A stretch of 11,925 nucleotides of DNA from a virus. Its lineage: Duplodnaviria; Heunggongvirae; Uroviricota; Caudoviricetes. The position numbers and the translations under genes are program-made. This document shows, piece by piece, positions 10,370 through 11,925 of this stretch. The notes under the pieces were generated by a model, which worked only from the letters and a program-made list of their open reading frames with translations, was not told where the DNA came from and searched no databases. The first letter of the stretch is position 1. Each line of letters opens with the position of its first letter. Location: IMG/VR virus record IMGVR_UViG_2778261461_000004; one strand, written 5' to 3'.

Positions 10370-10867
10370 CTACATTTGATGCTTTTTATCTCTTAAAGAT
10401 TCATAGATCTGTTGACAAGTCACTCCTGCGATGTAGCGTTCGTCAGCAATTTCAGCATAAAGCTGAGCTTCTGCTGCAATATCTCCGAGCATGTTGGTGA
10501 GCATTCCTTCGGCGGTTTTGGTTGTTTTGCCTCTGACGGCAGCGGCAAGATCTGCGGTATGCTTCGCTGCGTCAAGGCGTATGGCATATTTTTTTGCTTC
10601 GGCACGCAACTGGTTAACACTATCAGACAGATAAGCAGCCCTGGCAGAAATTTCAGCAGATTTCTGTTGTGCATCTTTAACAGCCTCATCACGGGATATA
10701 CTTCGCCCCTGTTCAATTATTCGAGCAGCAAATTGGACATTTACCTCTTGAGATAATTCGGCAGCATCACGCTCCGCCCATTTTTTTTGCCATCCTCTGT
10801 CGCTCCAGACATTACCTACGACAAATCCTGACAACACGAGCAAAATCACCGTGAATATCTGATTCAC
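10370..10867 (-). CDS. rzpQ: Rz-like i-spanin (inner-membrane spanin subunit)
   Basis: 165-aa ORF with an N-terminal TM segment ([15 protein letters not shown]) and a long charged, helical periplasmic domain. The apparent GTG start at 10867 overlaps the endolysin stop (GTGA), with GGGGGA upstream. Contains an embedded +1-frame lipoprotein ORF. Confidence 0.75.
10420..10674 (-). CDS. rzoQ: Rz1-like o-spanin (outer-membrane lipoprotein), embedded within Rz in another frame
   Basis: 84-aa [26 protein letters not shown]... with lipobox LTSC and a Pro-rich mature region, fully nested inside rz. GAGG upstream of the ATG at 10674. An alternative in-frame start at 10689 is possible. Confidence 0.7.
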
Positions 10868-11397
10868 TGTTCTATCCCCCAGCAGGTTAATGCACTCTCC
10901 TGGTCACGACGAATAACCTGACCGTAACAATTATTTGAACGAATGCGGCAATCACGTCCACCGTCCTTTATCCACCAGCGAATCGCCTCGCATGCGCCTT
11001 TACGATCACCGGCATTAAGCCGCTTATAAAACGTCGACGGAAAACACTTACCAGGGCCAATGTTATAGGGACAGAATGACGCGATACCGGCTTTCTGTGG
11101 CTCGGTCAGTGGAACTTTTATATTGCGCTCCACCCATGCCAGCGCCTTATCACGCTCAATGGCGTTGACCTGGTCGCATTTTTCCTTCGACAGTTTCATA
11201 TTGGGAAAAACGTTTTTTCCATCCACCACTGTGGCACCCCGACAGATGGTCCATATGCCAGAACCATCGCGGTATGCCATTGTGTGGTTACCTTCTTTTT
11301 CGTCCAGAAACTGGTCAAGTATCTGAGGAGCAGATGCGCCAGCACCAATCAGCGCCAGAACGGCAGCCGACAGGCCGTATCTGATTTTTGTGTTCAT
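10864..11397 (-). CDS. rrrQ: Phage lysozyme (T4-lysozyme-like fold) with N-terminal signal-anchor-release (SAR) domain
   Basis: 177-aa ORF. Gly/Ala-rich weakly hydrophobic N-terminus [20 protein letters not shown], followed by an E...D...T catalytic-triad spacing ([24 protein letters not shown]). ATGA overlap with the upstream ydfR stop. Confidence 0.85.
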
Positions 11398-11705
11398 AGA
11401 TATTTATGATGAGGACGCTCGTGCTTATTGGCAGGATTTTCAATCTTAAAGGAGTACTGATGCTGCAGATAAGACTCAACTTTTTCTGACAATTTTTCTG
11501 CTACTTCCAGGAAGACTTGCCGGACGCTCATTCTGGCTGCTGCCTCATAAAACTCCAGCGCAGCTCCTTCAACACGGTCCATGGCGACATCCAGGCCAAA
11601 AATTTCACCGTCAAAGCGTTCTTTGTCCTGTAAGGCTACAGTTACCGTAACTTTATTCTCAAAATTACGGACTCCTTTCACAACCAGTTCATAGTCTTGA
11701 GTCAT
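11394..11705 (-). CDS. ydfR: Uncharacterised prophage protein between holin and endolysin (YdfR-like, DUF1327 by recollection)
   Basis: 103-aa ORF with strong RBS GAGGAGAG 7 nt upstream of the ATG. Sits between holin and endolysin genes, as ydfR does in K-12 Qin. Confidence 0.65.
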   Translation of the reverse strand: MTQDYELVVKGVRNFENKVTVTVALQDKERFDGEIFGLDVAMDRVEGAALEFYEAAARMSVRQVFLEVAEKLSEKVESYLQHQYSFKIENPANKHERPHHKYL

Positions 11706-11709
11706 TGGA

Positions 11710-11925
11710 TTACTCTCCTCTCGCAGCCTTACGCCTGTCTTCTTTAATCTTGAAATAAAGATTTGTCAGATACGTCAGCATGCCAAATACCAGACTACCC
11801 AATACACCTATTGCCGCCCACTGTGAGGGCGTGACTTTATCGAGCAACTGTAAAAACCAGTAGCCAGCACTGCCTGCAGAGGTGCTGTAGGCGATGCCCG
11901 TTGTTAACTTATCCATGGATTTCAT
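11710..11925 (-). CDS. essQ: Class II holin, S21-type pinholin, with dual-start motif
   Basis: 71-aa [74 protein letters not shown] with two TM segments and a charged C-terminus. The Met1-Lys-Ser-Met4 start resembles the antiholin/holin dual start of phage 21 S. The ATG is the last three bases of the window, so upstream signals are not visible. Confidence 0.85.

Follow-up and report, generated by a model that had tools for sequence, protein, structure and literature searches.

A Qin-type prophage lysis cassette of Escherichia coli with a predicted pinholin, a predicted signal-arrest-release endolysin, an embedded spanin pair and a likely passenger gene, ydfR

Does a prophage that has lost its head and tail genes still carry a complete system for lysing its host, and does a fifth gene placed among the lysis genes take part in it? 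The question is raised by an 11,925-nt stretch of viral DNA (Caudoviricetes; IMG/VR virus record IMGVR_UViG_2778261461_000004; hereafter the window, always at its full length), which holds at one end a compact cassette of five genes: a holin gene, ydfR, an endolysin gene and the spanin genes Rz and Rz1. The window represents a defective E. coli prophage of the Qin site. Strain C1 differs from it by 1 nt over the whole 11,925 nt, and in C1 the Qin site lies between a truncated ydfJ and rspB. The cassette itself is an already known and named Qin-type lysis locus. Our analysis makes it very probable that it represents the late-operon lysis system of a Qin-type lambdoid prophage, composed of a pinholin, a signal-arrest-release (SAR) endolysin and a two-component spanin, with ydfR riding as a passenger between the holin and endolysin genes.

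The five open reading frames (ORFs) that the original prediction had proposed were all recovered at their positions, and each of the encoded proteins matched a Pfam or PHROG profile; NCBIfam returned nothing useful for any of the five. Of 5426 complete E. coli genomes, 5151 had some version of the cassette, and several E. coli chromosomes carried it at 100% identity. Over its full length, it was also 92–98% identical to regions of the complete lambdoid phage genomes mEp460_ev081, HannyBb, PhiR42_1, Tritos and 2H10. The original prediction had regarded the four lysis functions as intact, which is reasonable because phages carry identical copies of the endolysin and of Rz1, and the ORFs are open. 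"Intact" is thus a fair description of the five ORFs as sequences, and from these we infer that the cassette may be functional. It had also described all of the genes as tightly coupled. This holds for the ydfR stop and endolysin start, which overlap as ATGA, and for the endolysin stop and Rz start, which overlap as GTGA, but the holin and ydfR genes are separated by a 4-nt gap (TAA tcca ATG) and do not overlap. Plus-strand ORFs antisense to Rz (e.g., 10412–10756) were also considered as genes and found no support.

The holin is supported as a class II holin/antiholin of the phage-21 S type (essQ/essD-like) and is predicted to act as a pinholin, whose holes of about 2 nm would depolarise the membrane but be too small for a folded endolysin. 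It matched PF04971, "Bacteriophage P21 holin S", with an E-value of 2.3e-34 (cut-off 26 bits), and was identical at 62 of 71 positions (87%) to S21 of the phage 21 genome record and at 65 of 71 to K-12 EssQ. Inspection of the codons bore out M1-K2-S3-M4 as a potential dual start, with Met1 at 11925–11923, Met4 at 11916–11914 and Lys2 present, and the S21-type architecture of two transmembrane domains (TMDs) that had been proposed was recognised as well. TMD1 (approximately residues 8–26) is very weakly hydrophobic, with a mean Kyte-Doolittle hydropathy of 0.2 and 63% Gly/Ala/Ser/Thr, while TMD2 (approximately residues 36–56) has a mean hydropathy of 1.48 and keeps G40, S44 and G48, the GxxxSxxxG face. 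The charged tail of S21 is retained as well. In the phage 21 genome record, S21-71 is the antiholin and S21-68 the pinholin; according to a published summary of the mechanism, TMD1 of S21 resides in the membrane first, is held back by the positive charge at the N-terminus and later flips out, after which TMD2 forms small heptameric pores.

The endolysin is, by its sequence, a lysozyme of the rrrQ/933W R type. It matched PF00959 (Phage_lysozyme) at 6.2e-24 and phrog_7 (endolysin) at 1e-60, was 100% identical to the endolysin of phage mEp460_ev081 and shared 158 of 177 residues (89%) with 933W R. An orthologue of R21 was ruled out, as the identity to R21 was only 33%; in a HMMER alignment, residues 9–174 nevertheless aligned with full-length R21 (3hde). 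The catalytic residues E35 (11295–11293), D44 (11268–11266) and T50 (11250–11248) have the same numbering as in R21. They form the lysozyme triad Glu-8-Asp/Cys-5-Thr, and among 35 family members E35 and D44 were invariant and T50 nearly so. Eight cysteines (C52, C74, C109, C118, C136, C150, C157 and C172) were invariant in the Qin/933W endolysin family, compared with four in R21, which fits a periplasmic enzyme and suggests that they could form up to four periplasmic disulfides. The first of them is C52, and residues 1–51 contain no cysteine. The disulfide-regulated SAR subtype of P1 Lyz and ERA103, in which a cysteine of the SAR segment isomerises a caging disulfide, was ruled out on this ground, the N-terminal segment being free of cysteine.

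That the endolysin starts with a SAR segment, and is not a cytoplasmic lysozyme, had been read from its Gly/Ala-rich N-terminus. This reading appears well supported, if indirectly, by the 933W R orthologue, the R21 alignment and the conservation of the segment. Its N-terminus consists of K4 and R6 followed by 21 uncharged residues, Y7–L27 (nt 11379–11317), and its best 19-residue stretch contains 58% Gly/Ala/Ser/Thr, against 63% in R21. The motif LSAAVLxLxxAGA[SP]A[PST]xILDQFL was conserved over 98 members of the family, drawn from numerous enterobacterial genera. In experiments of the Young laboratory, 933W R has served as a SAR endolysin; by itself it turns few cells to spheres, and with the Mu releasin many. 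Such behaviour is that of a tethered enzyme and not of a freely secreted one, and as the cassette endolysin is 89% identical to 933W R with a near-identical N-terminus, it supports a SAR status here too. Surveys of Shiga toxin (Stx) phages likewise call the endolysin of the 933W R type a SAR endolysin and its holin a pinholin.

Rz and Rz1 are supported as an embedded two-component spanin of the DUF2514 type with a long o-spanin, for which contact between the two subunits through their C-termini and outer-membrane disruption are predicted. Rz matched DUF2514 (PF10721) at 9.7e-38 and phrog_312 ("Rz-like spanin") at 7e-57. It has an N-terminal TMD at about residues 4–22 (nt 10858–10802), a periplasmic domain rich in charge (31% charged residues in positions 23–165) and a single cysteine, Cys151, and differs from the phage copies by 7–10 residues. 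Its Shine-Dalgarno sequence (SD), GGGGGA, gives a duplex with the anti-SD of -8.4 kcal/mol. Rz1 matched phrog_11621 ("Rz-like spanin") at 1.7e-08. In agreement with the expected nesting in the +1 frame, it starts 193 nt into Rz, lies wholly inside it and ends 50 nt before its stop. The predicted LTSC lipobox was found at L20-T21-S22-C23 (nt 10617–10606), preceded by a signal sequence; the mature form would have 62 aa, with Val at +2, nine Pro, and Cys58 and Cys62. Rz1 is 100% identical to Rz1 of phage Tritos and 1 aa away from K-12 RzoQ, and its ORF was open in 79 of 80 related loci. Spanins of the lambda/21 type were ruled out, as these belong to different Pfam families (PF03245 and PF06085).

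Table 1. Genes of the lysis cassette and their positions in the window.
Gene	Coordinates	Strand	Product length	Start codon	Family	Remark
holin	11925..11710	minus	71 aa		PF04971	
ydfR	11705..11394	minus	103 aa		DUF1327 (PF07041)	
endolysin	11397..10864	minus	177 aa		PF00959	
Rz (i-spanin)	10867..10370	minus	165 aa	GTG	DUF2514 (PF10721)	
Rz1 (o-spanin)	10674..10420	minus	84 aa	ATG		within Rz

The window stops exactly on the holin ATG, and the holin ribosome-binding site, the promoter and the antiterminator signals lie beyond it. In a strain identical to the window, a strong SD, GGAGGTGAGG, is located just upstream of the holin gene. A Q antiterminator gene lies upstream in the matching strains, and C1 carries two terminator-like hairpins on the cassette strand, one just downstream of Q (30077–30054) and the other approximately 100 nt upstream of the holin ATG (L002, 26047–26026), as expected for a Q-antiterminated late operon. 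Within the cassette, the ydfR start uses an SD located within the holin gene, at its 3' end (anti-SD duplex, -9.5 kcal/mol), which in 933W serves the endolysin gene R directly. The endolysin start itself has no recognisable SD: in every ydfR-bearing cassette, it is preceded by the conserved A/U-rich sequence ATAAATATCY, with duplex energies of +1.1 to -2.8 kcal/mol against a background mean of -1.9 in the window. Because this start lacks an SD and overlaps the ydfR stop as ATGA, translation of the endolysin in the window cassette is probably coupled to that of ydfR. The SD-less start motif, ATAAATATC(C/T)ATGA, occurs at 11395–11420 of the window (minus strand) and at 2890–2917, 3328–3355 and 2846–2873 of loci L092, L095 and L098, respectively. 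Some ydfR-bearing variants have a spacer of 55–320 nt ahead of the endolysin start.

The course of lysis proposed for the cassette is derived from the protein families and from the phage 21 and 933W paradigms. Late transcription antiterminated by Q would pass the terminators and enter the cassette, where the holin gene would give rise to a 71-aa antiholin from Met1, with Lys2, and a 68-aa pinholin from Met4. Both forms would build up in the inner membrane, into which their weakly hydrophobic TMD1 would at first be inserted. In parallel, the endolysin would be exported by Sec, and its Gly/Ala/Ser-rich N-terminal segment would hold it to the membrane in an inactive state. Once the trigger time is reached, TMD1 would exit the bilayer and TMD2 (G40xxxS44xxxG48) would assemble into small pinholes, depolarising the membrane. 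The SAR segment would then be released and the lysozyme (E35/D44/T50) could degrade the murein, after which the inner-membrane protein Rz and the outer-membrane lipoprotein Rz1 would disrupt the outer membrane.

Several observations weigh against this picture of a working cassette, and they can be combined into an alternative that we consider unlikely, namely that the cassette is a silent relic whose ORFs are intact but whose lytic activity was lost through holin substitutions, missing expression signals or poor endolysin translation. The prophage is defective: in the element of C1, the portal gene is truncated and the head and tail genes are gone. In the same best-matching strain, an IS3 copy, one of its insertion sequence (IS) insertions, separates Q from the cassette. 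The two intrinsic terminator-like hairpins lie upstream of the holin gene, and the missing SD makes the expression level of the endolysin uncertain. In K-12, the corresponding cluster has been published as essentially silent in standard growth, and deletion of rrrQ or essQ left peptidoglycan labelling and vesicle release unchanged, unlike deletion of the DLP12 genes. Finally, the holin carries the substitutions G14S in TMD1 and L49M in TMD2 (codons at window 11884–11886 and 11779–11781, respectively), which occurred in none of the comparators; the S14/M49 allele was found in no sequenced phage of the collection searched (INPHARED), in which the best match was 95.8% identical.

Most of these observations have a counterpart on the other side. 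The five ORFs are intact, and the endolysin and Rz1 are identical to INPHARED phage copies. The SD-less endolysin start is common to phages with the same cassette type, such as mEp460_ev081 and Tritos, and is therefore compatible with lysis. The Q gene is still found upstream of the cassette in the matching strains, and in K-12 enrofloxacin raises the transcript level of rrrQ 9-fold and that of essQ 18-fold. As to the holin, Thr is found at residue 14 of the 933W type and Phe at residue 49 of S21, G40/S44/G48 are kept, and the S14/M49 combination was also encountered in 14 of 80 IMG/VR prophage loci, as well as in the RefSeq protein WP_000839587.1; both substitutions are thus probably tolerated. 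Mutational data for positions 14 and 49 of S21 were not found, a nanopore preprint covering D2, K3 and truncations only.

The 103-aa ydfR-like gene noted between the holin and endolysin genes was confirmed by a match to PF07041 (DUF1327) at 1.1e-51 over the full 93-position profile. The product is a soluble, acidic protein with a conserved core (residues 1–72) and a variable tail, and it differs from the mEp460_ev081 copy by one residue. No membrane segment was detected in YdfR, the maximum mean hydropathy over 19 aa being 0.67. Its AlphaFold2 (AF2) model was of modest quality (predicted local distance difference test score, pLDDT, 62) and showed three strands and a helix; searches with YdfR gave no BFVD match below E = 0.01, no PDB sequence match and no PADLOC defence model. 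The DUF1327 family is tiny, with 73 representatives at 50% identity among 1.84 billion proteins. The genes of its distant members (71–76 aa) occur between lambda-like tail genes M and L, adjacent to a minor tail gene or immediately behind Rz, which suggests that the domain may act like a mobile late-operon moron. On the basis of these positions in tail modules or after Rz, YdfR is most likely a late-expressed accessory (moron) passenger and not a lysis effector. Stand-alone DUF1327 genes of 71–72 aa outside the holin–endolysin gap were located at 449–667 of L102, 446–664 of L101 and 503–718 of L103.

YdfR could instead be a dedicated lysis component that regulates endolysin synthesis or release, a proposal that we judge quite unlikely. 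Its appeal lies in the fixed position of the gene, which was found between the holin and endolysin genes in 80 of 80 IMG/VR loci. The genes of the C-terminal variants of 104, 116 and 176 aa likewise start 4 nt downstream of one for a 71-aa PF04971 holin and are followed by one for a 177-aa lysozyme, with any spanin type, so that all four C-terminal variants share the position. In addition, ydfR takes the SD used by R in 933W, and the endolysin gene downstream of it never has one. The core is also under purifying selection (ratio of nonsynonymous to synonymous substitution rates, dN/dS, 0.23–0.30 for codons 1–72). Nevertheless, ydfR is missing from phages 21, 434 and 933W and from the prophage DLP12, all of which share this type of holin, and distant DUF1327 genes are found elsewhere, as described above. 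Nor does YdfR have the membrane segment that antiholins and the Mu releasin possess, and the published data concern binding to RNase E and RNA and not the envelope.

Those data come from a 2026 study, in which K-12 YdfR bound the N-terminal, catalytic half of RNase E with its residues 1–72 and co-purified with RNA. They give rise to a further and rather speculative reading, in our view an improbable one, in which YdfR would be a late-expressed phage modulator of RNase E and RNA, and endolysin synthesis would depend on ydfR translation or on protection of the late mRNA by YdfR. If true, a cytoplasmic protein would provide dosage or timing control for a pinholin/SAR-endolysin system. A passenger role remains our preferred reading of YdfR.

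The last alternative concerns the endolysin, whose N-terminus could be an ordinary cleavable Sec signal peptide, yielding a soluble and active periplasmic lysozyme that is not SAR-gated by the holin. The segment has the n-h-c layout of a signal peptide, with K4/R6, a short hydrophobic core of approximately 12 residues and the small residues AGASA, and cleavage at A19-G20-A21|S22, an acceptable -3/-1 site, is formally possible. Its Kyte-Doolittle values, Hessa sums and composition, including the Gly/Ala/Ser/Thr fraction, are similar to what the signal peptides of OmpA and MalE show; hydrophobicity and composition were therefore dropped as a test between a SAR segment and a signal peptide. The sole canonical A-x-A site, A21-S22-A23, is followed by Pro24, and almost all family members have Pro at position 22 or 24, beside this site. 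Pro at +1 blocks signal peptidase I. Ordinary signal peptides also evolve faster than their mature domains, but here the constraint on the N-terminus matches that on the catalytic domain (dN/dS 0.08 for codons 1–30 vs 0.06 for the remainder), and the segment is conserved across genera.

Structure prediction also placed the segment in the fold, as in full-length R21. In the AF2 model of the endolysin (pLDDT, 84.7), residues 11–30 scored about 95 and formed two short helices (11–18 and 23–35), and the N-terminus was not a single detached helix of low confidence. Foldseek aligned 169–173 columns of the model with full-length R21 or RrrD and only 140 with SAR-less R21. The way in which the N-terminus packs may be owed in part to the training structure 3HDE, which lessens the weight of the model. 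Given also that a dual-start S21-type holin is always the partner, that a freely secreted lysozyme would have no timing purpose in such a pairing, and that 933W R acts as a tethered enzyme enhanced by releasin, a cleaved signal peptide is very improbable.

Further features lie in the remainder of the window. A portal gene without its C-terminus adjoins a tail-fibre-assembly gene without its N-terminus at about position 3752 (window approximately 3309–5086, minus strand), and the loss of all head and tail genes seems to go back to one deletion. The terminase genes are kept (5295–7397 and 7397–7891). At the end of the window distant from the cassette, a ydfJ gene lacking its N-terminus (1–1284, minus strand) shows where prophage and chromosome meet at the Qin site. 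A full-length Rfam match to IS009 (220.9 bits) falls within the tail-fibre-assembly remnant (3343–3541, minus strand). Directly downstream of the cassette lies cspI; a match to the Rfam cspA thermoregulator (9767–10152, minus strand; 112.8 bits, E = 8e-29) spans this gene and its long leader. Between Rz and cspI, no terminator was detected in the window. The block cspI-ymcF-ynfR-ynfN-gnsB also occurs in phages mEp460_ev081 and Tritos.

The significance of the cassette is small, in that it is annotated in K-12, most E. coli genomes carry it and its components come from well-studied lysis families. It is useful as a correctly delimited example: in the Prokaryotic Genome Annotation Pipeline (PGAP) annotation of the matching strains B7A and C1, the embedded Rz1 gene is omitted and the Qin-site holin is named "essD", unlike the K-12 annotation, which has both rzoQ and essQ.

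Among known systems, the Qin cassette of K-12, essQ-ydfR-rrrQ-rzpQ/rzoQ (b1556–b1553 and b4689), is the same in genes, order, lengths, overlaps and chromosomal site, with 95.9% nucleotide identity. The proteins of the window differ from those of K-12 by 6 (holin), 2 (YdfR), 1 (endolysin), 7 (Rz) and 1 (Rz1) residues. The S14/M49 holin allele is the window's, and the window keeps the terminase genes and the truncated portal gene and has other cargo upstream of the holin. Phages mEp460_ev081, Tritos, HannyBb, PhiR42_1 and 2H10 have a similar S-ydfR-R-Rz/Rz1 block and share the downstream cspI-ynfN-gnsB cargo; they differ from the window in being complete phage genomes and in having holins with G14 and L49.

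Phage 21, the paradigm of a pinholin and SAR-endolysin system, and likewise DLP12 essD-rrrD and phage 434, share with the window the M-K-S-M start of the holin and the position of Rz1 within Rz. R21 has the same fold as the endolysin of the window and a weakly hydrophobic N-terminal segment, but the segment leading from SAR to Glu35 is a full helix (23–35) in the window endolysin. Phage 21 further differs in having no ydfR, in the low sequence identity and four cysteines of R21, and in its spanins of the PF03245/PF06085 families, where the window has DUF2514 spanins with a mature o-spanin of 62 aa. In 933W, R is close to the window protein, including the N-terminal segment, and the holin belongs to the same 71-aa family. 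The arrangement differs, with R directly after S and no ydfR, an ant gene between R and lambda-type Rz/Rz1, and a holin start of M-Y-Q-M with no Lys. Finally, the releasin gp25 of Mu (DUF2730) resembles YdfR as a small, acidic, phage-encoded accessory near a SAR endolysin gene. It has an N-terminal TMD, whereas YdfR is a soluble DUF1327 protein in which no sequence or fold relation to gp25 was found, and Mu has no holin, whereas the window cassette combines its endolysin with one.

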